NCBI GenBank assembly: GCA_965218785.1
Contig: OZ244650.1
Span: 64,001-128,000 of the forward strand
Direction: 5' to 3'
From: Nitrosopumilus sp.
GTDB taxonomy: Archaea > Thermoproteota > Nitrososphaeria > Nitrososphaerales > Nitrosopumilaceae
DNA: 64,000 nt
The translations under genes were made by a program, and so were the position numbers. The notes beneath the pieces are model-generated. The model did no database searches and was not told where the DNA came from. It saw only the letters and a program-made list of their open reading frames with translations. Shown here one piece after another: positions 1 to 24,549 of the stretch (within the stretch, counting starts at the first letter, position 1; every line of letters starts with the position of its first letter).

Positions 1-2
1 TT

Positions 3-302
3 AGAACAAAAAATCGAGAAGACGGTGAATTAATTTTTCAATTTGTTCAAACAAAATTATTTGAAATATATATGATACGCCAGATGGAGGGCCTGGCATA
101 TCCTGCTGTAACTAGTAACACCATTGCGAACTCTTCAATTTTATATCCGACAGAAAGGAATGAAAGAGAAAAAATTGCGTCAATCTTGTCTGGAATTGAC
201 ACATATATTCAAAAAAACCAAGAATACAAGAAAAAACTAGAGAAATTGAAGAAAGGTCTAATGCAGAATCTTTTAACAGGAAAGATACGCGTGAAAACAT
301 GA
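3..302 (+). CDS. hsdS: Type I R-M specificity subunit, 3' part (gene begins before the window)
   Basis: Frame open from base 3; C-terminus EKIASILSGID...LKKGLMQNLLTGKIRV is the conserved HsdS terminal helix. Confidence 0.9.
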   Translation, partial: RTKNREDGELIFQFVQTKLFEIYMIRQMEGLAYPAVTSNTIANSSILYPTERNEREKIASILSGIDTYIQKNQEYKKKLEKLKKGLMQNLLTGKIRVKT

Positions 303-490
303 TTCTATAAAAAAATCATTCAAACCCATTAAGATATGATCAAACAGGGCAGTTTTTTTGAATTTAGAGAAAATCCATATTTTTGAGCCTTGACCGTATC
401 AAAATCATTCCTCTGGAATTTTTTCAAAACTATCATGTCACACACCAACTAGTTTGTAGGTCTTTTTTTTGGCTTTGAAATCTGCATTTT

Positions 491-1981
491 TTACACCTCA
501 AAGCCTAGTTTTTTGAGATCTGCAGTTACTTCCTTTTCTAATTCTTGACGTTTATTTTTGAGTTGGGAAATTTCTTTTATAGTTTTTTGAATATCTACAA
601 TTTTTTCAGGCTCTGAATTGTCAATGTAACGTCTTACATTAAGATTCCAATCATTATCTTTAATGTCCTGAAGCGTAATTACTTTGGATTTATCTGATTC
701 GTCTTTTTTAGCATACTTTGATACAACATCTGGTAAATCATTTTCTTCAACAGGTTTACGTTTATCATCAAGTGACATTCCATCTGCTTGAACATCATAT
801 AGCCAAACTTTGTCAGTACTTCCACCTTTAGTGAAAAATAATACAGCAGTAGATACTCCTGCATATGGTTTGAATACACCTGAGGGTAAATACACAATTG
901 CATCTAGTTGACATTTCTCTAAGAGTAATTTTTTTGTATTTAAATGTACTTTAGAGGATCCAAACAAAACTCCCATTGGAACAATAATTGCTGCACGTCC
1001 TCCATTTTCTAAAATATTATAAAATAATTCAATGAACAGTAATTCTGTTTTCTTTGTATCTAATATAAATTCATTATTTAGAGAATCTTTATCAATTGAA
1101 CCTTTGAATGGTGGATTTGCCATTACAACTTGATATTTTGATGATTGCTCAAATTGTTTTGATAATGAATCTGTTCTTGTAATGTTTGGGTGTTCAATTC
1201 CATGTAGAATCATGTTAAATGTTCCAATTCTTAGCATAGTTCTATCTATATCATGACCATAGAATGTATCCTCACGTAATAGACTCCATCGGTCTCCAAG
1301 TTTTTCTCCTATTGGTCCTTGCTCTTTGAGAATTTTTACACTAGTATTTTGTTTAACGATATACTCGTATGAATTAATCAAAAACCCACCAGTACCACAC
1401 GCAGGATCACAAATCTTCTCACCAATCTTTGGGTTGATGATTTCAGTCATCATTTCAATAATATGTCTAGGTGTACGAAATTGACCATTCTTGCCTGATT
1501 GTTGCAGTTCACTAAGTAACTCTTCAAAAATATCTCCTTGAACATCTGGTCTGTGGTGAGAGATATCTAATTGGTCAATAATACTCACTGCTTCTTGAAG
1601 TAGTGATGCTTTTTCAATTTGAAATGAGGCATCACTCATAGTTTCACTAAATAATGTTTTTTCTCCATGATGAAGATCTTTGATAAATGGAAATACTCTA
1701 TCTTTTACATGTGCAATTATTTCTTCTCCATACATATTTTTCCATGAAGACCACTTACAATCCGTAAATGGTTTTTTATCCTTATCTAATCTATCAAAAA
1801 TTGATTCAAACTTTTCGTTTCCAGCTTCTGTTCTTTGGCGGTCTGCTGAATCTAAAACTTCAATTCTTCTCATAAATATTAGATAAGAAATCTGTTCTAC
1901 TACTCGTAAAGTATCAGTAATTCCTCCCTCCCAAAACTTTTGCCATAGTTGTCTTGCAAGTTTTTTTGCTTCGGGTTCCAT
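491..1981 (-). CDS. hsdM: Type I R-M N6-adenine methyltransferase
   Basis: GQFRTPRHI, DPACGTGGFL (motif I), ANPPF (motif IV); 496 aa. Confidence 0.95.
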   Translation of the reverse strand: MEPEAKKLARQLWQKFWEGGITDTLRVVEQISYLIFMRRIEVLDSADRQRTEAGNEKFESIFDRLDKDKKPFTDCKWSSWKNMYGEEIIAHVKDRVFPFIKDLHHGEKTLFSETMSDASFQIEKASLLQEAVSIIDQLDISHHRPDVQGDIFEELLSELQQSGKNGQFRTPRHIIEMMTEIINPKIGEKICDPACGTGGFLINSYEYIVKQNTSVKILKEQGPIGEKLGDRWSLLREDTFYGHDIDRTMLRIGTFNMILHGIEHPNITRTDSLSKQFEQSSKYQVVMANPPFKGSIDKDSLNNEFILDTKKTELLFIELFYNILENGGRAAIIVPMGVLFGSSKVHLNTKKLLLEKCQLDAIVYLPSGVFKPYAGVSTAVLFFTKGGSTDKVWLYDVQADGMSLDDKRKPVEENDLPDVVSKYAKKDESDKSKVITLQDIKDNDWNLNVRRYIDNSEPEKIVDIQKTIKEISQLKNKRQELEKEVTADLKKLGFEV

Positions 1982-3042
1982 TACTCATTTACCTTTCTTT
2001 TCAAGATTTTACAAAATTTTACCATCTCTAAAAGTTCTTCTTTTTCAAAAAAGTTTGTAGCTGATTTACCCATATTGCTAAATGGAAGATCAAAGAAATC
2101 AACATATTCAATATTTTTCTTTGAGAGAAATAATGCTTCTAAAATCCTAATAAAGTTGATTTGTTCGGGATTGAATTTTTTTGATAACAAAAATCCTGCA
2201 AATGCCTCTCCAATCATATCTTCTTTGTTTGATAGTTTTACTAGTCCCAAAATATGTCTGATAAACTCTACAATGTCTCTTTTTGGAGTATTGTATGCTT
2301 TACTTAGTGTCTCATCTGTAATTCCAAGTTCTGATGAATTCAAAGTATCTGCAAGTGATTCAATGTCTTCTTGAGTGATTTGTTCATCATTTTTAATTTT
2401 TAAAATAACTGGATTAGATTCTGCTAACTCTCGAATCTTCTTTTCAACTTTTTCAATATATATCTGAGAATCAACTGATTCTCTTTCTGGACCATACCTT
2501 ATAGTATCACGTTGTTGAATCACATCATCCATTCTAATCAAAATGGTCTGCACAGGCTCAGATTGCTGATAAATCATTATAGGGGACAATTCATCTCTAA
2601 TTTGACATATTTTCTCAATAGTAATATCATCCCAAAAAATTTTTTCAGTTAGCATTGTTTTAATTAACTGTCTTTTATCTACAATCTCTTCAATACTATC
2701 CGGAATTTTAGTCAGTGATGCACAAATCTCATCAATTAGTTTTTTTGGATTTTCTTGCTTCCACCACTCTGAAATATGATCAAATTCAAGTTTTGCAAGT
2801 AATAACTGCTCACACTTGTAAACAAATGATGCGGGCTTTAGTGAAACATCTGGTTTGTATTTCATTAATGGCATAATTCTTTTTTTTAAGAAAATCAATG
2901 GATCTAGTCCTCTTGTATTCCAAAAGTTTGGGTTCAAAGCAGTTTCAATATCTGCCATATGTGAGGACACTGATTCTGAATCTTTTGGCAGACTTTTCAC
3001 TTCATCAATAATTGATTGTTTAATTTTATCAAAATCATCCAT
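1981..3042 (-). CDS. hsdR: C-terminal part of split Type I restriction subunit (EcoEI-R C-terminal-like)
   Basis: Continues the 3035-4819 ORF in another frame with 8-nt overlap; C-terminus resembles EcoEI_R_C (FIRHILGL...EQINFI...PFS); abuts hsdM. Confidence 0.7.
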   Translation of the reverse strand: MDDFDKIKQSIIDEVKSLPKDSESVSSHMADIETALNPNFWNTRGLDPLIFLKKRIMPLMKYKPDVSLKPASFVYKCEQLLLAKLEFDHISEWWKQENPKKLIDEICASLTKIPDSIEEIVDKRQLIKTMLTEKIFWDDITIEKICQIRDELSPIMIYQQSEPVQTILIRMDDVIQQRDTIRYGPERESVDSQIYIEKVEKKIRELAESNPVILKIKNDEQITQEDIESLADTLNSSELGITDETLSKAYNTPKRDIVEFIRHILGLVKLSNKEDMIGEAFAGFLLSKKFNPEQINFIRILEALFLSKKNIEYVDFFDLPFSNMGKSATNFFEKEELLEMVKFCKILKRKVNE

Positions 3043-4819
3043 TTCTTTGAACCATCCTTTTGTATTGATTTAGTTTAGTGAGCAGTATTCTTGTAGCAAT
3101 TGCATCAGTAGGTTTTGGAATATCTCCTTTTGGATGCATTTCAAAGAAATCAAAATTTCCCATATAATCAAATATCAAAAACATATCTTTACCAGTTATT
3201 GGTAACCAATCTTTATTTTCACATATAGAATTATGCCTAGTTCCTCTACCAATCATTTGCCAAAAGCGAATCTTTGATTTTGTTGGTCGTGCAAAAACTA
3301 GATTACAAACTTCAGGAATATCTACTCCGGTATCTAAAATCCCAACAGAGATTACTATGCGTGGTAGACTGTTTTTCTTAAACTGTTTAACTAGATCTTT
3401 TGCTTTACTATCTTCCGAACTGATTAGTTTTATCATCTCACCTTTGTATACTTTATACATTTTTTCAAATTCCTCTAAGATAATTTTACCATGTCTAATT
3501 GACGTTGGAAAAATTATTGTTTTACAAGGCAATCCTGCATCATCTGTTAAACAATTTTCCATAAATTCTTTAATCCATGCTTTATTTGTGCCTGTAACTG
3601 AGATTTTTCTTTCAATATCAGTTCCTTCAAAGTTTAATTCTTCTTCTTCAATTCCTTCTTCTGCCAGTAATCTTATTTTCTCTTCATCAGGTATATCATC
3701 TGGTCTAATACCCTCTATCTGAAAATGTGATTTGACTGGAAATGCTTTGAATGGAACAAGATATCTTGGAACTGCCTGTTCATAACTAAATAATGATGTT
3801 GGAACACCATTTTCACATTCAAATGCATCATATGTGTCTCTTGCAATCATATCTGCCGGAGTTGCAGTAAGACCTACTTGAATTGCATCAAAGTATTGAA
3901 ATAGATTTTTGAATTTATTAAAAATAGAACGATGTGCCTCATCTGAAATGATTAAATCAAAGAATCCAATCGAGAATTCTTTGAAAACATTTTCCATTGT
4001 TTGTAAAGTTGAAACATAAATTCTTGAATTAACATCTACTTTTTTAGAAAATACTTTTTGTTTTGCCTCATTTGGGAAAAATTTTACAATGTTATCATCA
4101 AATGCCTGTGTTCGTAACTCATCTCTATCTACTAAAAATAATATCCTTTTAGCTCTTCTTGCCTTTAACATCATATCAATTAATGCCATAGATACTCTAG
4201 TTTTTCCTGTTCCTGTAGCTTGTACTATGAGAAATTTTCTTTTTACTCCATTTTCAATTCCGTCTAATATGCGCTCTGTTGCTTCAATTTGATATGGTCT
4301 ATTAATAATCTCCTCACGAATTTTTATTTCAGAAAAGCTTTTTTTGTTTTGATTTTGATAAAGATTTTCTTCTAAATCTTCTCTTGAATGAAACCTCAAA
4401 ATTTTTCTTGGATTAGAATGCCCTTTATTCCAAAACCAAATATCTATTCCATTTGTTAAATAAATAAAAATATCTGAATTAATCTGATCTTTGATGTCTT
4501 TGGCATATCCTTCACCCTGTGTTTGTCCTGCTATTCGTGAATCTTTTGATGTGCGTTTTGCTTCAATTACTGCTATTGGATTACCATTGTTATCTAATAA
4601 AACATAATCTGCATAGGCTTTTTCTTCTTTTAAGCCGATAGTATCTTTTCTTGTTTTGTAATCTCTTGTCTTAAAATCTGAATTTTTAGTATCTACTTCT
4701 TGTTTTACAATTGATACATCATCAGTATCCCATCCTGCTTGCTTGAGACGTTTGTCAATTCTATTTTTTCTAGTCTCGGCTTCTGTTTCTTGACTCAACT
4801 CTATATCTGTATAGTCCAT
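3035..4819 (-). CDS. hsdR: N-terminal part of split Type I restriction subunit (nuclease + SF2 motor)
   Basis: ADYVL...IEAK nuclease motif, ATGTGKT Walker A, DEAHRS, LTATP, QMIGRGTR. Confidence 0.92.
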   Translation of the reverse strand: MDYTDIELSQETEAETRKNRIDKRLKQAGWDTDDVSIVKQEVDTKNSDFKTRDYKTRKDTIGLKEEKAYADYVLLDNNGNPIAVIEAKRTSKDSRIAGQTQGEGYAKDIKDQINSDIFIYLTNGIDIWFWNKGHSNPRKILRFHSREDLEENLYQNQNKKSFSEIKIREEIINRPYQIEATERILDGIENGVKRKFLIVQATGTGKTRVSMALIDMMLKARRAKRILFLVDRDELRTQAFDDNIVKFFPNEAKQKVFSKKVDVNSRIYVSTLQTMENVFKEFSIGFFDLIISDEAHRSIFNKFKNLFQYFDAIQVGLTATPADMIARDTYDAFECENGVPTSLFSYEQAVPRYLVPFKAFPVKSHFQIEGIRPDDIPDEEKIRLLAEEGIEEEELNFEGTDIERKISVTGTNKAWIKEFMENCLTDDAGLPCKTIIFPTSIRHGKIILEEFEKMYKVYKGEMIKLISSEDSKAKDLVKQFKKNSLPRIVISVGILDTGVDIPEVCNLVFARPTKSKIRFWQMIGRGTRHNSICENKDWLPITGKDMFLIFDYMGNFDFFEMHPKGDIPKPTDAIATRILLTKLNQYKRMVQRNG

Positions 4820-5024
4820 CCTTTTAGAGATGTCGCTTTATCCCAAGTATGAGGCGGATGAATTCTTTTTTTCTTTCATGAAAAAGATCGTAATAACTTA
4901 TCTAATCAAACTTGATTTTGATAATATCTATAGGAGTGTTTTCAGGTTTTGCCTTGGATTTGGTTGGTAAAATTGATGATTGCTGATGTGTTCAAATCCA
5001 TTCATTCTTTGACTAGGCATAAAT

Positions 5025-5171
5025 TTATGGGATTCTGCTAGTATCATCTGAAATTTTGTCTAATTGACTACTGATATCATTCATAGTTTGATTCAGTAAT
5101 TTTATCTCTTCTAGAACCAACTTTAGTGTATCATTAACGTCGTTTATATGAAGAATTTCATCTGTGCCCAT
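5025..5171 (-). CDS. small putative coiled-coil protein (48 aa)
   Basis: Manually translated MGTDEILHINDVNDTLKLVLEEIKLLNQTMNDISSQLDKISDDTSRIP; heptad-like hydrophobic spacing; below ORF-track cutoff. Confidence 0.4.
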   Translation of the reverse strand: MGTDEILHINDVNDTLKLVLEEIKLLNQTMNDISSQLDKISDDTSRIP

Positions 5172-5409
5172 ATTTTACTACCCAGCAACATCAATAAAAA
5201 TAGTAACTATGGTCTGTTCTGTCTTGAGAGCACTGAATCTCTTGAATCAAACATCTGGTTGAAAATATCTTCCAGTATTGTATTCTTCTGCACACATATC
5301 GAAAAGACGCATGTATGATTTTTCATTATATTGTGAGTTTACAGGACATCATATTCCTATATGTTTTGATCTTGACTCTATATGTTCTGTAGGATCATCT
5401 GGGGATGTG

Positions 5410-5639
5410 ATGAAATATGGATCTTCTCTGGATTGAAAATCCATCTTTATCCGTACTGATTCCCAGAAGCATTTTGAATCAAAATATTCCCTTTGTTGAA
5501 ACTATTCTCCAAAATACCTACTCTTGCTGACACACGATAACTTCACAGCATCGATCAAAATTGAAGATAAAAAATTGATTATTACGAGTTCAAAATAAAA
5601 ATGAGTCTAAATACAAATGATTTATAATCAAACCTAAAC
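5410..5639 (-). repeat. outer inverted repeat, left copy (230 bp; partner 16064-16293)
   Basis: Reverse complement matches 16064-16293 with 3 mismatches seen by eye; covers hsdS stop codon and downstream non-coding DNA. Confidence 0.95.
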
Positions 5640-6899
5640 CCTGATTTTGCCCGACATTAATTTTGGGAGAAGTGAATCACGAATTTTTATCAAATTTTGT
5701 ATTGAAATATTATTTGATAATAATTTTTCAAAAATAAGATTCATAGTGCCATTCATTTTTTCTAATATTTTTGAAGATGGAATGGTAATTAGAGCTTCTG
5801 ATAAATGATGTCTTTGGATGTGACCCATAGTGGTTACTTTTCCTTCTGCAATTCTACAAAATCTAGGTAAATGAAATCGTATCCATTCATAGTAAAACCA
5901 CTTCTCATATTTTTCAGAAATTACTTTGAAAATATGTTGATTTAAAGCACCTTTACCATAATGCCACATCATTAATTCTAATGTACCTGACCATGAAAAT
6001 AAAATATCACCATTTTCAACAACATATTTTTTCTCTAAATCAACTCTGGCTTTTTCAATATTTGAAGAAAATCCATTTTTCATTTCTCGTATTTTAATGA
6101 CAGGTAAATAATTATTTGTCGTTGGTCTGAATTTTTGCAACGGTAACCCATTAATGAAAATTACAATTTTATCCAGTGCTTTTAATTCCCACCCTTTTGG
6201 AATCTCCTTTCCCAGTTCTTCATTATACTCCATTTCCCCATCCGACGACTTGTACGGTTTTCCATTCTCATCTGGGAACTCATAGTCAACAAACCATGAT
6301 TTGAAGATTGTTTGGGATATTTGTTCTAAGATCTGATTCATATTTCGATTTAATTCAATTTTAGAGTCTAGGTCTGAAAGAATTTTTGAAATTGTGGCCT
6401 GTTCATTTTTCTCAGGTATCTGAACAATAATTTGATCAAATGTATTTCTTGTAATAGTATTGAATACAGAACCATGTGTATTTGATTGTAAATCTTTTAT
6501 TTTAAACTTCAATAAATAATACAAAAAATCATTCTGTATTGCATTTTTTCCGTCTAGCCCATAACAAGATTGATTAAATGCCATATCTTTAGTGACTTGT
6601 CCAATTTCACCAACTGTGCCTCTAGCAGAAATAACCAACTGTCCTTTATGTAATAATTTTGTTGAACTTTCTTGTAAGCCTTTTTCTGTAATCGTTTTTG
6701 TGGTTTTGTAGATCTTTTTAATATCTCCAACAAAATCATTTATAGAAATCCAAGGTATACTACCATTCCAATAATTTGGATTTGATGTTTTAGGAGTTCC
6801 TCCGCCAATAATGTGTGTAATTTGAGAAAGAGGTTGAACTTTCCAATTTTTAGGAATCATTCCAAATTCTGTTTGTTTGAAATTTGTTTTTTGTTTCAT
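5634..6899 (-). CDS. hsdS: Type I R-M specificity subunit, intact, two TRDs
   Basis: FKQTEFGMIPKNW start, GGGTP, central ILSDLDSKIELN...IFKSWFVD...EIPKGW, terminal RDSLLPKLMSGKIRV. Confidence 0.95.
   Translation of the reverse strand: MKQKTNFKQTEFGMIPKNWKVQPLSQITHIIGGGTPKTSNPNYWNGSIPWISINDFVGDIKKIYKTTKTITEKGLQESSTKLLHKGQLVISARGTVGEIGQVTKDMAFNQSCYGLDGKNAIQNDFLYYLLKFKIKDLQSNTHGSVFNTITRNTFDQIIVQIPEKNEQATISKILSDLDSKIELNRNMNQILEQISQTIFKSWFVDYEFPDENGKPYKSSDGEMEYNEELGKEIPKGWELKALDKIVIFINGLPLQKFRPTTNNYLPVIKIREMKNGFSSNIEKARVDLEKKYVVENGDILFSWSGTLELMMWHYGKGALNQHIFKVISEKYEKWFYYEWIRFHLPRFCRIAEGKVTTMGHIQRHHLSEALITIPSSKILEKMNGTMNLIFEKLLSNNISIQNLIKIRDSLLPKLMSGKIRV
6193..6302 (-). repeat. inner inverted repeat in hsdS central conserved region (110 bp; partner 15380-15489)
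   Basis: Reverse complement identical to 15380-15489 on manual comparison. Confidence 0.95.
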
Positions 6900-7348
6900 T
6901 ATCTTTATTAATTTACTTCTATATCTTAAGGTTGTTGTAGAAAATAAAATTATTGTTTAATTACCTCAAAAGATAGATTTGCATTATAGATTTATAATCA
7001 TTGAATATGTATAGCGAGATGCACAAGTTTGTAAATTATTTTCAGGATATTCCAATTTTATTATTCATATTTACCTTGGATAAATCCATCAATCTCTAAT
7101 TTTTAGATGATTTTTGGTTTATGAATTTTGTCTTTTCGTTATATGTGGTTTTTCTTCAATTAGATACAACAAAAAATAAAATATGTATGTATTAATGAAT
7201 TATGTAACAATCTCACATAATAAAATATTAAATCAATCAATTTTAATTTTTTTTAAATTTATCCAAGTATTTTTTTAAATTTATAAATCAGATAAATAAT
7301 TTGTTTTGACATAGTATTTTTTATTTATAAATATTTTAATGAACACTA

Positions 7349-8674
7349 TTGAAGAAATTATTGAATACCACAAACTTTAAGAAAATATCTTTTAATGATT
7401 TCTGTAATCTGAATTCTATACGATATTGGCGTGAGCAATTGAACGATGCAAATATAAAAAACATAACAAATAAATCACAACTTGGTGGGACAAGAAATGT
7501 CTATACATATGGATTACTGGAGTTTCATAATTGGTTATTAGATAGAGAATTTCAATATGTTGCGGATATACAGATCAAAGAAAATATAATCCAGCAATGC
7601 AAAGTTGATGTACGTCTAGATGGTGTCGAACACTTACTAGATCTAAATAGAAAGAACATATCCAATAAAACAAGTTTTGCATGTCTAATAAAACAATATT
7701 TGGCAGAATTATCATCATACAGAAAACAATCAACAGTAAAAAACTCAATGTACTCAATAAGATCATTCTTCAGAGAAAACGAAGCAGACATTTCGTTTAG
7801 ATTTAAGCATAGGATCAAGAGAAATTATAAAAAATATGTAGAAAAATCATTATCTCTTGCAGATTTGCAAAAAATCCTTACAGTAAGAGATATTCAGTCA
7901 ATAGAAAGAGCCGTATTTCTGTGCAAGTTTCATAGAGGTCTAGATAACGCTACATTTGCTGATAGATTTAACTTTGAAGTGTGGGCATGTCTTCTAAAAC
8001 ACTTTGGTTCAGACATTCCAGAAAAATGGGATCTGAACAACATTCCAGTACCAATACGTCTTGTGAGAGTGAAGACGGGATTTACCCATACAGGATTTTT
8101 AGATCTGGATTCGATTGTAGCAATAATACAATATGTAAAGACTAGATACGACAAACCACAAATCAATAAGGCATTGTTTGTTGATACAAAAAATAGACCA
8201 ATTACAACAAACTGGATATCAAGAAGATTTCATAAATTAGTCATGAGAATTGATTTACAAGATAACATAAAACAACAATCGACTAAAGGGTATACCTCAC
8301 ATGAAATGAGAGATCTACTTAAATCTACTTTGATTGATTCTGGATGTAGAGTAGATGTAGCAGATCATGTTATAGGTCATGTTCCAAAAGATTCGTATGA
8401 GAAACAATCTTTATTATATCCTGAATCATTGATGAGAGAGTTTATGCGTGCATCACATCGTGTTAATATTATTACAAACAATTCTCAAAATAATCATGCT
8501 GTAAATTATTCTTTATTGCATGATGTAAATTGCCGATCAAAATATAACAATATTGTTGATATTGAAATTACACTTAAAAATATTCAAAAGGATATGATTG
8601 TACAGAGAGAGAAACTTTCACATATGGAAAGATTGTTTGATATTTCAACTAAATCAGAAGTACGTAATACATAA
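7349..8674 (+). CDS. tyrosine recombinase/integrase (XerC/D-like)
   Basis: Catalytic-domain motifs: RVKTG (K), HEMR (HxxR), VIGH, DSY (Tyr nucleophile); N-terminal SAM-like region with SIRSFF. Confidence 0.85.
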   Translation: MKKLLNTTNFKKISFNDFCNLNSIRYWREQLNDANIKNITNKSQLGGTRNVYTYGLLEFHNWLLDREFQYVADIQIKENIIQQCKVDVRLDGVEHLLDLNRKNISNKTSFACLIKQYLAELSSYRKQSTVKNSMYSIRSFFRENEADISFRFKHRIKRNYKKYVEKSLSLADLQKILTVRDIQSIERAVFLCKFHRGLDNATFADRFNFEVWACLLKHFGSDIPEKWDLNNIPVPIRLVRVKTGFTHTGFLDLDSIVAIIQYVKTRYDKPQINKALFVDTKNRPITTNWISRRFHKLVMRIDLQDNIKQQSTKGYTSHEMRDLLKSTLIDSGCRVDVADHVIGHVPKDSYEKQSLLYPESLMREFMRASHRVNIITNNSQNNHAVNYSLLHDVNCRSKYNNIVDIEITLKNIQKDMIVQREKLSHMERLFDISTKSEVRNT

Positions 8675-8831
8675 CATAGAGATTTATATTAATAAAGAAG
8701 AATTAATTTCAAGAAGAATATGATAAAAAAATTACAAAATTCAATATTCAACCAGATCTATTGCAAAGATTATAATGGATTATTTTTACATGGGATGAAT
8801 ATGAGCTAAAATTCTAACTGCAGGTGAATAA

Positions 8832-11800
8832 ATGAAAAAAATAATTTCTGAAGCAGACGTTGAAGAAAATGTTCTAGATATTCTAAAAGATTTAGGTTAT
8901 GAAATAATTCTAGGAAAAAATGAAGATTATCTTCCAGGCGGAAATAACTCATTAAGAGATAGCTATCAAGATATCATATTAGAAAACCGATTACGTAACG
9001 CTTTAAAACAAATTAATCCATCAGTATCTGATTTATCAATTGAACATGCAATAAAACAAGTTTTGCGAAACTCCAGTCAGAAGTTTATTGTAAACAATGA
9101 GAATTTTCACAAAATGCTCGTAGATGGAATAGACGTACCATCACAAAAGGATGTGGAAAGATACGAAAAAATATGGCTTTTTGAGTTTGATCCAAAAAAA
9201 ATCCATAATAATGATTTTGTTGCAACAAACCAGTTCACAGTAATAGAAAACAATATGGAAAGAAGACTCGACATAATACTCTTCATTAATGGTATTCCGT
9301 TACTAGTTTTTGAGCTAAAAAACTTGGCAGATGAAAAGGTAGACATTTGGACTGCATATAATCAATTCCAAACGTATATGGAACAGCTTCCTACTTTGTT
9401 CAAATTCAATGAAATACTTGTAATTAGCGATGGAATACAAGCAAGAGCGGGAACTATAACTTCAAACAAGGAACGATTCATGGAGTGGAAAACAGTTGAT
9501 GGTCATGTATCAAAGAAAAATTTGACTGCAATTGAAATTCTTTTGCGTGGATTATGTGACAGACAAAAACTCTTAGATATAATTAGAAATTTTATTATTT
9601 TTGAAAAGAACAAGAAGATAACAAAAAAACTTGCTGCATATCATCAATATCGAGCTGTAAACAAGGCAGTAGAATCCACAATCTGTGCTAGAAGAAAAAA
9701 TAAAAAAGCAGGTATAATTTGGCACACGCAAGGCTCCGGCAAATCATTAACCATGATATTTTACACAGGAAAGCTTGTCCGAGAGCTCGACAATCCAACT
9801 ATAGTTGTATTAACCGATAGAAATGATCTTGATGATCAACTGTTTGGTACTTTTGGCAGATGTCAGGATATTCTGAGACAAAAACCCAAACAAGCAGACA
9901 AGAGAACAGATCTTGAAAAACTAATCAATGTATCTTCAGGAGGTATTGTATTTACAACAATTCAGAAATTCTTTCCAGATAAAGATAGGAAGAAATATCC
10001 TGTATTGTCTGAACGAGATAATATTTTTGTGATTGTGGATGAAGCACATAGAAGTCAATATGGTTTTTCTGCCAAGATCGTAAATAAAAAAGACAAAGAA
10101 ACATTGATCACATATGGTTACGCAAAATATCTCAGAGATGCACTACCAAACGCATCGTTTATTGGTTTCACGGGAACACCAATCGAAAAATCTGACAAAT
10201 CAACTCCTGCAGTATTTGGTAAATATGTGGATTCATACGATATAGAACAAGCAGTAGAAGATGGTGCAACTGTGAGAATTTATTATGAAAGTAGACTTGC
10301 CAAACTGGATCTAAAACTAGAAGAAAAACCAAAAATTGATAAAGAATTTGAAGATGTGACAGAAGGAGGAGAAGAAGAGGAAAAAGAAAAATTAAAAAGC
10401 AAATGGGCAAGAACTGAAAAGATAGTCGGCTCTCCCAGACGAATAAAAAGAATAGCAAAAGATATTGTGGATCATTTTGAAGAACGAACCTCGATTTTCG
10501 AGGGAAAGGCAATGATAGTGTGCATGTCACGAAGAATCTGTGTTGATTTACATGACGAGATAACAAAACTTAGGCCTTTATGGCACCACAACGATGATGA
10601 TAAAGGAATAATCAAAGTAGTCATGACGGGTTCAGCTTCGGATCCAAAAGAATGGCAAGAACATATACGGAACAAAGCCAGAAGAAAGATAATTGGAGAT
10701 AATTTCAAAGAAGAAGAAGAAAAGCCACAGATCATCATTGTAAGAGACATGTTTCTTACTGGATTTGATGCTCCATCTTTACACACAATGTATCTGGACA
10801 AACCAATCAAGGGTCACTCTCTCATGCAAGCAATTGCAAGAGTTAACAGGATATATCCTGGAAAAGAAGGTGGTCTAGTAGTAGATTATATAGGAATAGG
10901 TGCGGATCTAAAAAAAGCATTAGTGGACTATACCAAAAGTGGTGGAAATGGTAAACCTGCTTTTGATCAAAACCAAGCAATATCACTTATGCTTGAAAAA
11001 TATGAAATTGTAAGGGATATGTTCTACGGTTTTGATTACAGAGAATTCTTTGATCTCAAACCCAATCAGAGAATCTCATTTATACCTGATGCTATGGAGC
11101 ATATTCTAAAGGAAAAAGGAAAGAAAGAGAGATTTGAAAAAGAAACTACAGCACTTTTGAAGGCATTTTCTCTTGCTGTGCCAAGTGACAAAGCAATGAA
11201 TATTAAAGACGAAGTAGGATTGTTTCAAGCAATTAAATCTGCAATCACCAAAACAATTGAATCCAAAAATATACTCAAAGGTGAGTTTGATGCAGGAATT
11301 AAACAAATTCTTTCAAAGGCAGTAGTATCTGACAGAATAGTAGATATATTTGAAGCGGCAGGATTACAAAAACCAGAACTCTCAATATTATCCGAAGAAT
11401 TTCTAAAAGAAGTCAAAGAAATGCCTCAAAAGAATCTTGCATTTGAAGCACTTAAAAAATTACTTAATGATGAAATTAGATTATTTGCAAAGAAAAATAT
11501 TGTTCAGGGAAAATCGTTTATGGATTTGTTAGATAAAGCTATTAAAAAATACACCAACAGAAGTGTAGATACAGCACAAATCATTGATGAACTTGTGTCA
11601 CTTGCAAGAAAAATAAGAGATGAGAAAAAAAGAGGAAAAGATCAAAATCTTTCAGATGATGAGATTGCGTTCTATGATGCACTTGAGGTTAATGACAGTG
11701 CAGTCAAAATTCTTGGTGATAAAGTGCTACAAAAAATTGCACTAGATCTGACTGATATGATACGAAATAGTGTAACAATAGATTGGACACAAAGAGAGAG

Positions 11801-11936
11801 TGTTCAGGCAGGAATTAGACTGAAGGTTAAAAAGATTCTTAGAAAATATGGATATCCCCCTGACAAGGAAAAAAAAGCTACCGAAACCGTACTCAAACAA
11901 GCTGGTGTAATTGCAAAGAGCTGGGCAGAATCTTAG
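8832..11936 (+). CDS. hsdR: Type I restriction subunit R (EcoR124I-like)
   Basis: [49 protein letters not shown]; 1034 aa. Confidence 0.96.
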
Positions 11937-12026
11937 AAAATTCTATATTTTTTGTAATAAACTGAATTGATTAGATTATCCAGAAGAATTAGTTATAAAA
12001 TAGAACAATGTATGTCTTAACCTATA

Positions 12027-12162
12027 GCGAAAAGACAAAGTTCGTGAACTAAAAATCATCAAAAAACTAGAGAAATTAGCGGATTTTATCCAAGGTAAGT
12101 ATGAATAATAAAATTGGAATCCTGACAATAATTCATAAACTTATGCTTCTTGTTACATATGA
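12027..12162 (+). repeat. dispersed non-coding repeat (~135 bp; second copy 60121-60253)
   Basis: Shared blocks gacaaagttc.tgaactaaaaatcatca and gtatgaataataaaattggaa in both copies. Confidence 0.85.
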
Positions 12163-12288
12163 CTAATTCAATCATAAGATATAACATTTTAGGTACAAAA
12201 TATTACAAAATATTAATTCATACGAATAATGTGATAAAATGAACAATCTTAATTTATTTTTAGTATTATTATGAAACAAGTATATTGA

Positions 12289-13818
12289 ATGATAAATTCA
12301 TCTAATGTTGTGAATCTTGCATTCGAAGAAAAACTTTGGAAGACTGCAGATAAACTTCGAAGTAATATGGATGCTGCAGAATACAAACATGTTGTTTTAG
12401 GATTAATTTTTCTCAAATATATCTCGGATGTTTTCATCGAAATTTATGATGAATTAAGCAAAGATTCTAATTCAGATCCAGAAGATGTTGATGAATATAT
12501 TTCCAGAAGAATCTTTTGGGTTCCTAAAAATGCTAGATGGAATTATTTTGAAAGCAAAGCAAAAAACCCAGAAATTGGTGAAATTATTGATGATGCGATG
12601 GATTCTATAGAAAAAGAGAATATTTCTCTAACAGGCGTGCTTCCAAAAAGCTATGCGAAACCCAATTTGGATAAACAAAGATTAGGGGAATTAATTGATC
12701 TGATTGGTACAATTAGTTTAGGTGATAAAGAAAATCGAAGTAAAGATATTCTTGGACGAGTATATGAGTATTTTTTAGGACAATTTGCGGATGCCGAAGG
12801 AAAGAAAGGAGGTCAATTCTATACACCTCGTAGTATTGTTAAATTGTTGGTTGGGATGTTAGAACCATACAAAGGCAGAATTTTTGATCCATGTTGTGGT
12901 TCAGGAGGAATGTTTGTTCAAAGTGAGAAATTTATAGACGCTCATGGTGGAAAGATTAGAAACATCTCTGTATTTGGTCAAGAAAGTAATCAAACAACTT
13001 GGCGCTTATGTAAAATGAATATGGCGATTAGGGGAATTGATGCAAATATAAAATGGGGGGATTCTTTTAGAGATGATCAATTCAAAGATTTAAGAGCAGA
13101 TTTCATATTAGCTAATCCACCGTTTAATGATAGTGATTGGAGTGGAGAGTTATTACAAGATGATGTACGATGGAGCTTTGGACCACCTCCTAAAGGTAAT
13201 GCAAACTTTGCATGGATTCAAAATTTCATACATCATCTTTCCCCAACTGGAATTGCAGGATTTGTTTTAGCTAATGGCTCTATGACTTCTAACATATCTG
13301 GTGAAGGAGATATTCGTAAGAACATCGTGAAGGCAGATCTGATTGATTGCATGATTGCATTACCCTCTCAATTATTTTATAATACAATGATCCCTGCTTG
13401 TTTATGGTTTGTATCACACAATAAAAAAAAATATAAAATTAGAGATAGGCAAAAACAAACACTTTTCATTGATGCACGTAAAATGGGTGAATTAATTGAC
13501 AGAAGACATAGAGCATTAACAGATGACGACATAGAAAAAATTTCAGATACCTATCATATGTGGCAAGGAAAAATTGATAAAAAATATGAAGATGTATTAG
13601 GATTTTGTAAATCTGTTTCTTTAGAAGAGATAAGAAAACATGAATGGGTTTTATCACCGGGTAGATATGTAGGAGTGAAGACAGAAGAAGAAGATCCAAT
13701 AGAATTTGAAGAAAAAATGAAACAGTTAACAGCAAAGATTGCAAAACAAATGAATGAAGGAAAGATACTTGATGCAGAGATAAGAAAAAATTTAGCGAGT
13801 ATTGGATATGAATTCTGA
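12289..13818 (+). CDS. hsdM: Type I R-M N6-adenine methyltransferase
   Basis: [35 protein letters not shown]. Confidence 0.96.
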
Positions 13819-14791
13819 TAAAACATTAATCTTAATGGACACAAATAAAACTAGAAACATATTAGATGGTTCTCCTCGTTATGATGAATTTGATTTTGGA
13901 AGAGATTTCAAAGTATTAAAGTTGTTTATTGATAAAAATAATTTATCGGATAATATAATTTTAGCAATCACTGAAATGACATTAAAAGAATTACTTGTAC
14001 AAAAAAAGAAGACATATGAAGATGATAAAGAAAATCTAAGATCTGCATCAACTAGACTAAGAACTTTAAAAAATGTAGTAGTTATTCCTGATTTTACTCT
14101 ACCTGATAATTCTTTTGATTGTGTTAACTACCTTGATCCAATAATAAATGAATTCTTAAAAGAAAACAATATTACAATTATTAAAGTTGAAGATAGTAAA
14201 AAATCATCAACATTTGATGCATTAATTCAAAGGGCTATCGATAGAAAACCTCCTTTTAAGCCAGGAAAAAATAATAATTTTGGATCTGGGTTTAAAGATG
14301 CAATTATCTGGGAAACATTCAGTCAAAATGATATCAAAAAAAGTTGTGATAATATAATATTATTTACAAATGATAATGATTTTAATGGATGCGAGAAGGA
14401 AATCAACGATGTTAATTTTAAGATAATTAAATCAACAGGAGAATTAATTGATGAACTTGAATCAATATATGACACACAGATACGTATTAAAAAATATGAA
14501 AAAATATTAGAAAATCAATATTTTGAGAATAATCTTAAACATAATATTGAATTAGAGTTAGACCATACAATAGATGATATCAATATAGTTTCATTGCGTG
14601 ATCAAATTATAGACGATCCAATAGACTTGAAAGAAAAATTCCATTCTCTAAATAAAAATGAAGAATATTTTGAAAATATGATATGTTTAGTTAGCAATAT
14701 CCGGATTTTAGATGATGAGTACATAATATACAGTCTAATAGATCTTGGTCCTAATACAATTATAACAATTCAGGTAGAGAATAACCCATGA
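13802..14791 (+). CDS. PIN-domain protein (DUF4935-like)
   Basis: LMDTN, KPPF...[18 protein letters not shown] acidic PIN motifs; overlaps hsdM stop and hsdS start. Confidence 0.8.
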
Positions 14792-16069
14792 AACAAAGAT
14801 TCAAGCAGACAGAAATTGGATTAATTCTAGGGAATTAGAATTTTGAAGAATTAAATAAACACGCAAACATCATAATGGGTCAATCACCAAAATCTAAGTA
14901 CTATAATTCTGATGGAAAAGGAATTATATTTTTACAAGGTAATAGAACATTTGATAGAATACATCCAAGATATGATACATGGACAACCAGAGTAACAAAA
15001 CTAGCAAGAAAGATTCAGTGTTTGTAAGTGCACGAGCGCCTGTTGGTAAAGTAAATATTGCTTGTGATGATTTATGTATTGAACGAGGTTTAATGTCTAT
15101 TTCTGGAGACAATAATAAATTTATTTTTTATTTATTTAAAGCATACAAGAGTCACATTATCAGTAAAGAAACAGGAACTATATATGGTTTAGTAACCAAA
15201 GCAAGTATTTTAAACTTCAAATTTCTATTTCCAAGTTTGCATGAACAAGATCAAATTGTTAAAATCCTCTCCGATCTTGATTCTAAAATAGAACTCAATC
15301 ACAAAATAAACAAAACTCTAGAACAAATAGCCCAAACAATCTTCAAATCATGATTTCATGACTTGTTTAGCTAGTCCATAAATCATGGTTTGTTGACTAT
15401 GAGTTCCCAGATGAGAATGGAAAACCGTACAAGTCGTCGGATGGGGAAATGGAGTATAATGAAGAACTGGGAAAGGAGATTCCAAAAGGATGGAGAAATT
15501 GCAATCATAATGAACTAGGAGATTTTAAAAATGGTATAAATTTTTCAAAAAATGAAAATGGTGATTCATCTTTTTATATAATTAACGTACGGGATATAAT
15601 TAAAAATAATTTTGTGTTAGAATCTACGTGTGATGTGATAAACATAGATTTCAATAAAGCCAAAAAATATTTGTTAAAAGAAGGTGATATAATACTTGCT
15701 AGAAGTGCAAGTCCGGGGGAAGTTATTTTTATTTATGAATTTAATAATAAATTAATTTATTCTGGATTTAGTATACGATTTAGATCTTTTAATCCTATAC
15801 ATAGAATTTATTTATTTCAAAATTTTCAATTAATACAAAATATTATCAGATATAATCTTTCAGATGGCACAACTCTGAAAAATATTACTCAAGAAACGTT
15901 AAAACAAATCCAAATTCTTATTCCTGATGATGTGTTGCTTATTAGATATAACATACTTATTAAAAATATACATAAAAAGATAGTCTTATTATTGAAAGAA
16001 AACAGATCATTAATTTCTATTCGTGATTTCTTATTACCAAAATTAATATCGGGTAAAATCAGAGTTTAG
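14788..16069 (+). pseudogene. hsdS: disrupted hsdS: broken TRD1 half, intact TRD2 half
   Basis: ATG 14788 gives [16 protein letters not shown] then TAG at 14836; a frameshift near 15000; TGA at 15351 with 35-bp insertion; from 15380 an open frame to RDFLLPKLISGKIRV. Confidence 0.9.
15380..15489 (+). repeat. inner inverted repeat, right copy
   Basis: Identical to reverse complement of 6193-6302. Confidence 0.95.
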
Positions 16070-16293
16070 GTTTGATTATAAATCATTTACATTTAGATTC
16101 ATTTTTATTTTGAACTCGTAATAATCAATTTTTTATCTTCAATTTTGATCGATGCTGTGAAGTTATCGTGTGTCAGCAAGAGTAGGTATTTTGGAGAATA
16201 GTTTCAACAAAGGGAATATTTTGATTCAAAATGCTTCTGGGAATCAGTACGGATAAAGATGGATTTTCAATCCAGAGAAGATCCATATTTCAT
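16064..16293 (+). repeat. outer inverted repeat, right copy
   Basis: Near-identical to reverse complement of 5410-5639. Confidence 0.95.
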
Positions 16294-16335
16294 GTCTATA
16301 TCCACATAACTTGGGATAACCGAAAAAACAGAGTT

Positions 16336-16875
16336 TTAAATCCGCGAGGCCACATCAAAGAATGCAGAGTTTGTCTCCTCGATTGTTTTTGAACCTACAA
16401 TGATCCCTTTTCCTGATGTAAACAACAACGCAACACAGCTATCCTGAATCCGGTAAATCAATCCTGGAAACTGTTCTGGCTCGTAGATGCATCTGGGCAG
16501 TGTTCTTGCCAGAGTTTCTATTGAAAGTTTTCTACCCATATCAAACCTTGATACGATGTTTCTTACCTGTGGTGTGATCTTGACAGGCTTTACCAAATCA
16601 TAATTCCGCAGTATCCTGCATGCCTTGCGCAGTTCCCGTCTTGCCTGCTCTGGGCTTTTTGTACCCACGGAGATCAGCTTTCCGGTTCTAAAGACTGTCA
16701 CTCTACCTGTCATAACGTCATCTTTTACATATCCACATCGATACAGCTCCAGATTTGCACTGAGATGTTCATATTTGTTAAATGATTTTAGGTTGACTTC
16801 CTGCTTGAGGTCAGCAGTACACACTGTATTTTGAATCTTGATCTCTGATCGAAGCTTGATATCTGATTTTTTCAA
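16336..16875 (-). CDS. tbp: TATA-box-binding protein paralogue (divergent)
   Basis: Two TBP repeats: IQNTV...VFRTGKLISVGTKS and VRNIV...YEPEQFPGLIYR...LLFTSGKGIIVGSK. Confidence 0.9.
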   Translation of the reverse strand: MKKSDIKLRSEIKIQNTVCTADLKQEVNLKSFNKYEHLSANLELYRCGYVKDDVMTGRVTVFRTGKLISVGTKSPEQARRELRKACRILRNYDLVKPVKITPQVRNIVSRFDMGRKLSIETLARTLPRCIYEPEQFPGLIYRIQDSCVALLFTSGKGIIVGSKTIEETNSAFFDVASRI

Positions 16876-16931
16876 CTCTAATTGTTTTTGTAATCCCCTG
16901 TTTTAAAAACACTCACAGTAAAACACATTTT

Positions 16932-19577
16932 TTATTTTCCAAAAACAGAAAAGAACTCTAATGCGCCTTTTTTTGAAAGTTTTTTATTTTTTGTAAGACA
17001 GTAGTTTGTGGTAAACGTACATCTTGGACATCCCTCCCACTCCCCATCTTCCTGATTGGAGTCTGCCGAACAATCACAGTCATTAACAAGCATATATGAC
17101 GCGGCCAGTATTTTTTCAAATTCATCAAAAATCATCCTGCTGTATCCGTTAAATCCGTTTGATGAGTTGTCATAAAGATAGATTACTCCATCTTCATAGT
17201 ATGCATCTATCTCGTTTGATTCTGACTTTGTAATGATCTTCGATGCGTTAATCAGCATGTGTATAACCGTATGAACTCGATAATCTGATGACATTTGACT
17301 TTTGGATCCAGAATCTATTTTTAAAACAAATTCTGATGGAATATCTATCCTGACTGCAGAATGCCTTGATCTCCAATTAAAGTTGCGCCATGCCGGAATG
17401 TCTGCACCATTAAACGTCTCAAACTTTTCTATTGATTCATTATAATTTCCCTTTAGATATCCAATAACTGTTTTATTTATTTCGACCATACCATAACGCA
17501 ACTGAATTTTTCTAGAGTTCATTATAACTTCCCTATATACTGCATCATCTGAAATTTCAGTAATTGATGTTATAATAATCGGAATCGTATTTTTTTGTAT
17601 TTCATCTGATTCCTTCAGGCGAGCTATTGCCCCGTTTCGAGATTTTGTTAACGATTCCACCTTGTAGGTTTGTTTGTTAAAATGATAAATTGCATCCTGG
17701 TGCAGCTGGTAATATCCCATGGGAATCCCTCTGGTCCCTATCTTTTTTGAATTATGATAAATTTCAATCTCACCTGACACCCCACGCAAATTGACACTAT
17801 TTGCAAAGGCAAAAAATTCAAGCTTGTCTGGCGTCATAACTGATCGTTTTTCAACCTCCACTGACTTTGTATGTTTTTCAGAAATGATAGGATTTTCTTT
17901 GTTAATTGAAATGATGTGCCTCTGTGCAAGATAATCCTTTATGTGCCGGGCAAAATAATGACATGCTGCATCATCTGGATCAAACACGCATACGGCATAT
18001 GATTTTTGTCCCATTCTTCCTGCACGCCCAATTCTTTGAACAAAAGAGTCATACTCGTTTTTAAACGCTGAAATTACCACATCCACACGACCTATGTCGA
18101 TTCCAAGCTCTAGTGTGGGCGTGCAGGATAACGCGTCTAATTCCCCTGCCTTCATCTGCAATTCGTAGAGTTTTCTATCCCTCTGATTAATGCCCCCTCT
18201 GTGAACCTGTATCCTGATTCTCTTGTTTGATTCTTCCAGATTTGATGCAAGAAACTCTGCGTTATTGTGGGAATTACTGAAAATCAACTGTGTAGAACCA
18301 TTTTCATAGCAAATTGACGCTAGCCGCTCCATGGTCGTCCTTTGTCCAAATTTTCTTGGCATGATAAAGATCATGTGCATGTCATGTTTTCTTCTGATCT
18401 TGCTTTTGATGTGTGAAAATGATTCTATAGGCAGATCAAACATATCGGAAAAAAACTCCCTGGAATTATCAAGTGTCGCAGAAGAGCCGACAAACTGGAC
18501 TTTACTCATGTACCTCTTCATTCGTTTTAACACGTGATACACGTTTGATCCATGAAAACTAGTGTAGGAATGGGCCTCATCCATTACAATTATTTTTGCA
18601 TTTTTGAACAGATGGCGCCATTTTTTATCCTGTAAAATCAGATGATAATTGATAAAATCAAAATTTGTTGCAATGATAACTGATTTTTTATATGAATCTG
18701 AAATGACTTTCTCCTTATATTCGGGATTCTGACCGCCGTGAATAGAGTAAACGCCTACAGTGCTGTTTAATCCGCATTTTTCAATTAGCTCTGATATTTT
18801 TGCTACCTGATCATCAATTAACGCATTTAATGGATATACAAACAGTGCAAAGACTCCGCGTTCTTTTACTTTGGAGATTTTCTGTAAAATCGGAATGGTA
18901 AATGCTTCGGTTTTACCAGAACCCGTGGGCGCCGATATTATCGAGTTATCCCCCTTTAGAATACGGCGAATCGTCTCTTCTTGGAATGGCAATAATCCTG
19001 AAAATCCGTATTTCTGTATTCCGCTTCGGATGTTTTCAGATAAAATATCCTTCAAGTTGTTAATGGGAATTTTCTCTGGTTCTGGAGCAGTCATGTTTTC
19101 ATAGTGAATTATGCCTAGTGTCTCTTCTTTGTGGCCCTGGATAATTTCATTAATTATTTTATCTTCATTTAGTAGTGATTCTGGAATTTTACTGATGTCA
19201 AAGAGGATGTCTGATGATATCGGTGTTGGTGATGTTGGTGTCTCTGGTTTTATGACTTTGGGCTTTTGTTTTTTATATTTTTTAATTTCATCTGGATAAT
19301 ATGGTTCGGCTGATTCTATGGGGCCATCACATTGATGCGGTCTGTCTGTCCGGGAATCCATTGGAATGAATTTGCCGCTGTCGGACTTGAATTCCTCATC
19401 CCAGTATATCTCGGTCCCGCATCCTTTATTGCATTGTTTTGTCTTTGAGTAATTAATTCCATATGCCGGTCTTTTTTTAACGACTAATTCAGGATTACAT
19501 CTTGGACAAATCCATGATGCTCCCACATCTTTTGAATTCTGCAAAAGTCTAGTATCACAATCTGAACAGAATTTCAT
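16932..19577 (-). CDS. DEAH-box SF2 helicase with DUF1998 (MrfA/Hrq1/SftH-like) and N-terminal Zn-binding modules
   Basis: APTGSGKT, DEAH, SAT, QRIGRAGR; C-terminal CDC...GCPRC; start placed at MKFCSDC. Confidence 0.9.
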   Translation of the reverse strand: MKFCSDCDTRLLQNSKDVGASWICPRCNPELVVKKRPAYGINYSKTKQCNKGCGTEIYWDEEFKSDSGKFIPMDSRTDRPHQCDGPIESAEPYYPDEIKKYKKQKPKVIKPETPTSPTPISSDILFDISKIPESLLNEDKIINEIIQGHKEETLGIIHYENMTAPEPEKIPINNLKDILSENIRSGIQKYGFSGLLPFQEETIRRILKGDNSIISAPTGSGKTEAFTIPILQKISKVKERGVFALFVYPLNALIDDQVAKISELIEKCGLNSTVGVYSIHGGQNPEYKEKVISDSYKKSVIIATNFDFINYHLILQDKKWRHLFKNAKIIVMDEAHSYTSFHGSNVYHVLKRMKRYMSKVQFVGSSATLDNSREFFSDMFDLPIESFSHIKSKIRRKHDMHMIFIMPRKFGQRTTMERLASICYENGSTQLIFSNSHNNAEFLASNLEESNKRIRIQVHRGGINQRDRKLYELQMKAGELDALSCTPTLELGIDIGRVDVVISAFKNEYDSFVQRIGRAGRMGQKSYAVCVFDPDDAACHYFARHIKDYLAQRHIISINKENPIISEKHTKSVEVEKRSVMTPDKLEFFAFANSVNLRGVSGEIEIYHNSKKIGTRGIPMGYYQLHQDAIYHFNKQTYKVESLTKSRNGAIARLKESDEIQKNTIPIIITSITEISDDAVYREVIMNSRKIQLRYGMVEINKTVIGYLKGNYNESIEKFETFNGADIPAWRNFNWRSRHSAVRIDIPSEFVLKIDSGSKSQMSSDYRVHTVIHMLINASKIITKSESNEIDAYYEDGVIYLYDNSSNGFNGYSRMIFDEFEKILAASYMLVNDCDCSADSNQEDGEWEGCPRCTFTTNYCLTKNKKLSKKGALEFFSVFGK

Positions 19578-19881
19578 TAATAATTTTTGTAAATATACCA
19601 TTAATGAATAGTGCTTTGTTGAACAAGACATCCTGTATTCTCAATAGATCACTATTCCACTAACAAGAACTTCTCCCGTCAGTATGTATTCAAATAAACA
19701 TTGGATTTAGATCTGATTCTTTCATCAGTAATAGTACATGAAATGTAATAGACATCTCAAATTCAATTGAATTGATCATTACAAAAACTGATCACTGATT
19801 TTCTAGTAAGAGTGTCATTTTAATAAATTCACATAAAAAAATTAGCGAATGATTTAAGGAGCCGACTTTATTAAAAAAATT

Positions 19882-24247: not shown

Positions 24248-24549
24248 GAAATTTCACATCTAAAAATAGCAATTCATCTGAAAGTCCACAATACATCAAA
24301 AACAATGTAATGTGATTAAATCCAAAATAATTTTATGCTCTTCTTGAATGGTCCGTATCATTTCTTTGTTGGTAAAATTCTGCTAGAATTGTAACGCCTT
24401 GATACATAGACTTTTTGAACAAGTTGGAGGGTAAGATCCAGGGCTAGAATGTCTGAAAATACGTATGAATTTAGCTTTATTTTACATGGGATGACAAGAA
24501 ATCCCTATTAGTTTCATCATCTACTCATAATTATGAGTGGAATAGGAAC

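Follow-up and report, generated by a model that had tools for sequence, protein, structure and literature searches.

Can an archaeon switch the specificity of a Type I restriction-modification (R-M) system by DNA inversion, as is known from bacteria? The question is raised by a locus at positions 5410-16293 of a 64,000-nt stretch of a Nitrosopumilus sp. genome (contig OZ244650.1, positions 64,001 to 128,000; hereafter called the window, to which coordinates refer unless another genome is named), in which two inverted copies of the specificity gene hsdS bracket a recombinase gene, hsdR, hsdM and a PIN-domain gene. On balance we consider it probable that the Type I R-M system encoded here possesses an hsdS shufflon, its host being an ammonia-oxidising thaumarchaeon, and the locus is in any case a well-supported archaeal candidate for a variant of a known bacterial kind of system, the flipping itself not being seen in contigs that end at the repeats. 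The identity of the host follows from the genome of 1.99 Mb on two contigs, which encodes an archaeal AmoA and no methyl-coenzyme M reductase (MCR) alpha subunit (mcrA, for which it was searched), and from a TATA-binding protein (TBP) gene beside the locus. A gut methanogen as the host was rejected on account of this amoA and the lack of mcrA. Contig C2 of the assembly has no relation to the locus.

The intact specificity gene, hsdS_A, codes for a protein of 421 amino acids (aa) on the minus strand (5634-6899) and contains two Methylase_S stretches, the order of its parts being a first target recognition domain (TRD1a), a conserved helix, a short sequence here called site A, a linker, the second domain TRD2a and a C-terminal helix. 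It is followed on the plus strand by a tyrosine recombinase gene (441 aa, 7349-8674, PF00589; the sole copy in the genome), hsdR (1034 aa, 8832-11936, with HSDR_N, SWI2_SNF2 and T1RH-like_C), hsdM (509 aa, 12289-13818, with HsdM_N and N6_Mtase), a PIN_12-domain gene (13802-14791) that is embedded between hsdM and the next gene and overlaps both, and the second specificity gene hsdS_B (14788-16069), the 5′ half of which is broken and the 3′ half open. The domain sets of HsdR, HsdM and HsdS, the latter with Methylase_S twice, are thus all found as in a Type I system, and the opposite-strand genes hsdS_A (minus) and hsdS_B (plus), with hsdR and hsdM in between, form the arrangement typical of inverting hsdS genes. 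Gene calls and domain searches thereby confirm a preliminary description of this DNA, which had recognised an intact hsdS and an opposite-strand hsdS on either side of recombinase, hsdR, hsdM and PIN gene.

Two pairs of inverted repeats delimit the second TRD. The inner pair (6189-6302 and 15380-15493) has a length of 114 nt with 99% identity, lies at the TRD1/TRD2 boundary and contains a perfect run of 110 nt, for which exactly the coordinates given before were recovered (6193-6302 / 15380-15489). The outer pair lies at or beyond the 3′ end of the genes (5410-5684 and 16019-16293) and, having been put at 230 bp in the preliminary description, now measures 275 nt with 96% identity. Its left arm comprises the last 51 nt of hsdS_A, stop codon included, and 224 nt of 3′ non-coding sequence; all 12 mismatches are located in the first 80 nt (51 nt coding and 29 nt beyond), and the other 195 nt are non-coding and perfect (5410-5604 = 16099-16293). 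A TRD2 bounded by repeats in this way is characteristic of inverting hsdS genes. With respect to the sequences next to these tracts, the TRD2 halves of hsdS_A and hsdS_B share 39% identity over 234 aa, shared linker included, and the TRD1s 31-35% in parts, so that the TRDs, which had been called unrelated, are indeed divergent but not strictly unrelated. Likewise, the conserved coding helix immediately 5′ of the inner repeat has an identity of 72% at the nucleotide level, and the many synonymous differences reported for it turn out to be half of the story, as its 35 codons contain 11 synonymous but also 10 non-synonymous differences. Two perfect tracts of 110 and 195 nt around a divergent TRD2 and beside a diverged helix indicate that the repeat arms are being homogenised and thus evolve in concert, and from this homogenisation it follows that the two hsdS copies recombine with each other.

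The second copy was examined for what such recombination could deliver. Its TRD1b′ and helix (14788-15344) are interrupted by an in-frame TAG (codon 17) as well as by a frameshift near 15000, and a 35-nt element (15345-15379) shifts the frame, carries a stop codon and renders the site described below a tandem one. The silent cassette made up of linker, TRD2b and C-terminal helix (15371-16069) is, as had been noticed, an open reading frame: it contains 0 stops in 232 codons compared to about 22 expected from base shuffles, and 19 and 35 are present in the other two frames. As TRD2b moreover has full-length relatives with up to 64% identity, it looks, by its sequence, like a genuine TRD. Inverting positions 6303-15379 in silico, which corresponds to a crossover at any point of the inner repeat, moves TRD1a to the plus strand ahead of TRD2b and yields an open hsdS of 428 aa, i.e., an in-frame alternative specificity gene, and leaves the reciprocal product broken; with the upstream tandem site as partner, the crossover would give a truncated product of 201 aa. 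The idea of an inversion of about 9 kb as a specificity switch is therefore supported in part, with regard to architecture and feasible product, the part that did not come into view in the contigs being the flip itself.

According to the model that we favour, the tyrosine recombinase encoded in the locus would recombine site A in the expressed hsdS_A with the downstream tandem site B2 in the interrupted hsdS_B, possibly assisted by homologous recombination within the identical arms. Such a crossover would invert about 9 kb comprising the recombinase gene, hsdR, hsdM, the PIN gene and both TRD1s, and would fuse TRD1a in frame to TRD2b in place of TRD2a. The exchange of TRD2 would in turn change one half of the bipartite motif for methylase and nuclease alike, and the tandem site 35 nt upstream would by its frame shift and stop keep the second copy untranslatable at full length. 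A flip of the entire locus would be permitted by the outer repeat, and a flip of just the TRD2 cassettes by outer and inner repeats jointly, so that four configurations with two specificities could be generated.

A possible target of the recombinase is found at the start of the inner repeat in the form of a 24-bp sequence, in gene orientation ATCTTCAAA-TCATGG-TTTGTTGAC, with two 9-nt arms of imperfect inverted symmetry and a 6-nt spacer, which by analogy makes it a candidate for a core site of the tyrosine-recombinase type. hsdS_A carries a single copy (site A, 6285-6308, minus strand), and hsdS_B carries a tandem pair (both on the plus strand) consisting of the upstream site B1 (15339-15362), degenerate with 3 mismatches in the 20-nt pattern and a TCATGA spacer, and the intact downstream site B2 (15374-15397), the putative partner for the in-frame swap of TRD2. 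A search of the 1.99-Mb genome with the central 20 nt of the site and up to 3 mismatches resulted in only 3 matches, all in the locus (one in hsdS_A, two in hsdS_B), and the reversed pattern used as a control gave 0 matches in the same genome. Since the 35-nt insertion of hsdS_B equals the first tandem site plus an 11-nt spacer, the broken 5′ half of this gene is more than a product of decay, the insertion being a conserved tandem copy of the candidate recombination site.

The recombinase itself scores 31.2 bits against PF00589 (cut-off 27.1), and all 7 homologues in an alignment share R206, K242, H318, R321, H344, Y350 and Y357, which we take to match the R-K-HxxR-H-Y pattern of the superfamily with Y350 or Y357 as candidate tyrosines. 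An AlphaFold model from this shallow alignment reached a predicted local distance difference test (pLDDT) value of 67; Foldseek listed tyrosine recombinases as its PDB matches, archaeal XerA, XerH, XerD, Tn1549 Int, lambda Int and Cre coming first, and the best E is 4e-5 with modest TM-scores of 0.3-0.5. In sequence searches, no recombinase was found amongst the PDB chains (the sole match at E ≤ 1 was an unrelated enzyme with E 0.42), no match in NCBIfam or PADLOC, and no relative in genome contigs, metagenome contigs (single protein; alignment) or viral contigs. Roughly 19 database proteins share 55-62% identity with it, and all its named relatives are proteins of Thaumarchaeota or Nitrosopumilus.

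Within the genus, of which 151 genomes were compared, recombinase homologues are common and frequently occur in several copies; the majority have a length of 500-600 aa and an identity of 34-47%. Distinct from these is a short class of 425-448 aa with 57-59% identity in the alignment and 58-61% by search. Complete members of the short class occur only in the genome analysed here and in the genomes G009, G151 and G172, a partial copy exists in G163, and in a class-level sample of 401 genomes the short class was found in no other genus. Each of the four complete genes adjoins hsdR in a Type I locus whose two hsdS are inverted relative to each other. The gene at 7349-8674 encodes, as in other inverting systems, a site-specific recombinase from within the locus and belongs to a clade that is tied to such loci in 4/4 complete cases. 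The long class in turn looks like integrases of mobile elements, as a paralogue of 570 aa ends an insertion of about 82 kb in hsdM of G009.

The comparison with related genomes, suggested as a check in the preliminary description, thus revealed the same two-inverted-hsdS layout, site and recombinase in three other species. Each of the four loci combines an hsdS containing a single site with an hsdS containing two, the latter at a distance of exactly 35 nt, and the upstream half-frame ends at a stop codon inside the 35-nt element; the spacing of 35 nt was seen in all six genomes that possess a tandem pair. Furthermore, perfect identity between the two copies within a genome adjoins the site in all four species, extending 14 nt to its 5′ side and, site included, 110 nt to its 3′ side in this genome, 60 and 23 nt in G009, 43 and 23 nt in G151, and 57 and 90 nt in G172, and the segment common to all of these runs is the site itself. 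G172 has an additional inverted repeat of 156 nt (98%) over the hsdM 3′ end and hsdS start. The TRD1s of the hsdM-linked hsdS of G009 and G172 are 85% identical, but their TRD2s share less than 45%, a pattern that, as far as sequence comparison can tell, would represent shuffling over evolutionary time and support the proposed switch. The nearest R-M homologue of the locus, an operon of the order hsdM-PIN-hsdS-hsdR in G101 (81% aa identity for hsdM, 68% for the PIN_12 gene, which has the same position there, and 79% for hsdR), has in contrast a single hsdS and neither recombinase nor repeats nor site, and represents the form of the locus without the switch module.

The conserved tandem arrangement also allows for a more elaborate and more tentative model with three functional sites, which we regard as possible rather than probable. 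Recombination with B2 would again swap TRD2 in frame, and recombination with B1 would pass the 35-nt spacer with its frameshift and stop to the other gene, so that at any time exactly one of the two hsdS would be intact; as to the enzyme, it would represent a thaumarchaeal integrase that has been domesticated and is genus-specific. Counted in favour of this model are the spacing in 6/6 genomes, the conservation of the stop codon within the element in the four loci read, and the finding that the hsdM-linked hsdS with the 85%-identical TRD1 is split by tandem sites in G009 and intact in G172. If it were true, up to four specificities would be available where both TRD1s are intact, and two specificities plus a truncated or OFF state in this genome. 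The tandem-site arrangement could thus enforce mutually exclusive expression of hsdS, a design that was not found described for bacterial systems.

Several observations weigh against a working switch, and most of them can be accommodated by assuming that the locus is a relic, that is, the now static result of a past rearrangement, with hsdS_B as a duplicate in decay and with arms that owe their identity to recent gene conversion or duplication. The broken TRD1b′, with its nonsense codon and frameshift, shows that part of the second hsdS copy is decaying, and site B1 is degenerate in this genome, with mismatches and an altered spacer. Damage is visible in the sister loci as well. In G009, hsdM is split, its C-terminal half lying beside hsdS2 and its N-terminal half (295 aa) about 82 kb away beside the 570-aa recombinase paralogue (G009:C1 ~87.5-88.2 kb and 168.9-171.5 kb; L023, L020), an interruption that looks like a large integrated element; the locus of G172 contains repeats resembling insertion sequences (IS); and the hsdM-linked hsdS of G151 (S1) is frameshifted in an A-run (4 vs 5) at the 5′ edge of the identity tract (~21580, L040), which may reflect either an error of sequencing or a true lesion. 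Such damage indicates that loci of this type can persist as relics. In line with this, G036 and G162 retain orphan head-to-head pairs of half-size, TRD2-type hsdS with two or three sites at 35-nt spacing and no intact recombinase of the short class, the pair in G036 (L035 8838-10170) being flanked by IS copies and that in G162 (L036 8375-9702) having a third site about 300 kb away.

In addition, no alternative form of the locus is on record. TRD1a or TRD2b in another combination was not found among recorded proteins, the best matches having 76% (TRD1a) and 64% (TRD2b) identity. Nor was the alternative junction present in any contig of three public DNA runs from two studies, which were compared as Logan contigs over positions 4300-17700; these contigs stop at every repeat, so that the orientation cannot be read from them. 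Further points on the same side are that the recombinase model is only moderately confident, with Y350 or Y357 as the nucleophile, and that the candidate site lies within the coding motif FKSWFVD, because of which its conservation is partly due to the protein. The contrast between the openness of TRD2b and the broken TRD1b′ was dropped as a proof of selection, as two lesions in 557 nt of TRD1b′ do not differ significantly from none in 696 nt of TRD2b (P ~0.2, own estimate).

With a decayed TRD1b′, a degenerate B1, and insertions and frameshifts in the sister loci, the relic is a serious rival, which we nevertheless judge to be the less likely explanation by a good distance. This is because recombinase, hsdR, hsdM, hsdS_A and TRD2b all have open frames, sites A and B2 have stayed intact, and the separate perfect tracts of 110 and 195 nt on either side of a divergent cassette are not accounted for by a single old event. 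In the shufflon that we prefer, the recombinase would act on these sites and switching would continue in this strain.

A second rival sees in the locus a by-product of a mobile element, whose integrase brought along hsdS_A and hsdR and whose insertion left the repeats behind, any inversion then being due to general homologous recombination. The distant paralogues of 500-600 aa, which are multi-copy and one of which ends the insertion in G009 hsdM, would fit such an origin, as would the gene order, which is unlike that of G101, and the setting in a defence island. Also two inverted copies of an element resembling a miniature inverted-repeat transposable element (MITE) flank recombinase and hsdR, one between hsdS_A and the recombinase gene (7005-7154, plus strand), the other between hsdR and hsdM and inverted to the first (12020-12160, minus strand); they account for a third inverted pair (around 7049-7146 / 12020-12120), may explain the difference in gene order from G101, and are outside the switch. 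This MITE-like element measures about 135 nt, of which about 29 nt at either end form terminal inverted repeats, and is a dispersed repeat with 13 copies in the genome, of which a third one in the window is found at 60122-60250 (minus strand); other genomes of the genus have it too, and its depth in the metagenome runs is very high. Opposite-strand joins of 7067/7076 to 12073 were rejected as evidence for inversion, because they are located in these multi-copy sequences. Finally, contigs of other strains appear to skip the locus: X2 and X3 contigs link 5229 to 16322, the intervening sequence not being known, so that related strains may lack or replace the whole 11-kb locus, which has no bearing on inversion. 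Against a mere by-product speak the single-copy state of the short class here and the position of 4/4 complete copies inside two-hsdS loci, the lack of direct att-like repeats flanking the locus, and a site that is inside hsdS, inverted instead of direct, and conserved across species in its 35-nt tandem arrangement. This explanation thus appears distinctly improbable.

The weakest rival, that the identical repeats or the second copy were created by mis-assembly, can draw on the missing independent verification of the orientation across the repeats but is hardly credible, given that the same layout exists in three other species and that all four junctions between unique sequence and inner repeat were reproduced with 0 differences in contigs from the 3 runs of 2 studies. 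The repeats are therefore real, which disposes of the assembly artefact that had been named as a possible refutation, and what the contigs cannot provide, as they do not link the flanks across the repeats, is an independent check of the assembled orientation. One X1 contig with a depth of 2 and 22 mismatches in 227 nt joins 5574 to 16127 on opposite strands; it probably derives from another strain and is not interpretable.

Amongst known systems the locus most resembles hsd1 of Mycoplasma pulmonis and SpnIII of Streptococcus pneumoniae. In hsd1, two full-size inverted hsdS reportedly bracket hsdR and hsdM, and site-specific inversion at short sites in conserved regions is said to generate chimeric hsdS. 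Two inverted hsdS around hsdR and hsdM, and short sites within conserved regions, are common to both loci; in contrast to hsd1, the present locus has an archaeal host, a recombinase gene within the inverted segment and one hsdS copy with tandem sites 35 nt apart. As repeats exist here only in the central and 3′ regions, only TRD2 would be exchanged, unlike in M. pulmonis hsd1. The latter is counted amongst the well-studied cases of hsdS recombination in the pertinent passage of PMC4948785. For SpnIII, also known as ivr (Spn556II, cod), with its tyrosine recombinase CreX/PsrA, passages of PMC4190663 and PMC4948785 state that switching alters the methylation motif. As described in these passages, SpnIII combines an expressed hsdS with silent inverted TRD cassettes, inverted repeats in conserved regions and a locus-encoded tyrosine recombinase, all of which recur here. 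Its silent copies are, however, truncated and without a 5′ end, and its inversions of about 1-3 kb do not include hsdR and hsdM, whereas in the present case the silent copy is of full length, part of the hsdM operon and interrupted by the tandem site, the segment measures about 9 kb, and the nearest relatives of the recombinase are thaumarchaeal integrases.

Surveys of inverting Type I systems (Atack 2020, PMC7394358; Huang 2020, PMC7672463; Milman 2023, PMC9881135) describe, in the passages concerned, a shared signature of a duplicated variable hsdS, inverted repeats and often a recombinase in the locus. An archaeal locus is not named in the matched passages of these surveys, whose supplementary tables, not covered here, may list archaeal loci: the word ‘Archaea’ is absent from the main text of PMC7394358 and occurs once, in general terms, in that of PMC7672463, and according to the relevant passage of PMC9881135 only bacteria were scanned, archaea still to be done. 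The text of PMC10028968 mentions 12 archaeal invertons, none of which is called hsdS there, with a supplement that may hold archaeal entries, and a passage of PMC5903667 reports no inversions in 6 archaeal datasets. Such loci in archaea have thus been noted in general terms, and, in agreement with the preliminary description, which knew of no characterised archaeal example, full-text searches, which do not extend to supplementary tables, yielded no example that has been described or tested.

New here are a defined 24-bp candidate site, a clade of recombinases dedicated to such loci, a tandem-site arrangement that is conserved between species, and the within-genome identity next to the site in all four of them. 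Programmed hsdS inversion has been well studied in host-associated bacteria, where it diversifies phage defence and the methylome within a clone. Ammonia-oxidising archaea are amongst the most abundant microbes of ocean and soil and are under heavy viral pressure; if the proposed switch is true, bet-hedging restriction specificity would bear on virus-host dynamics in these organisms, which are difficult to study by genetic means, and possibly also on their epigenetic heterogeneity.

Some further features of the locus and its surroundings were noticed. The PIN_12 gene has no family in PADLOC or NCBIfam, and its position is, we presume, reminiscent of PrrC-like nucleases within Type I operons. 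A scan of positions 4800-16900 against Rfam gave no match. A TBP paralogue (16336-16875), with an identity of 34-64% between species, adjoins the 3′ end of one hsdS in 4/4 species (this genome, G009, G151 and G172), which places the locus in a conserved neighbourhood. Directly to the left, a second Type I system occupies positions 1-4819 and extends past the start of the window, with the tail of an hsdS (3-302), hsdM (491-1981, minus strand) and an hsdR that is apparently split into the overlapping frames 1981-3042 and 3035-4819. To the right follows a defence island (16932-27636) that includes a DEAD-box helicase which contains an MZB zinc domain and resembles BrxHI or SngC, an AAA_5 protein that is PD-T4-1-like in part, and an MmeI-like enzyme of Type IIG.

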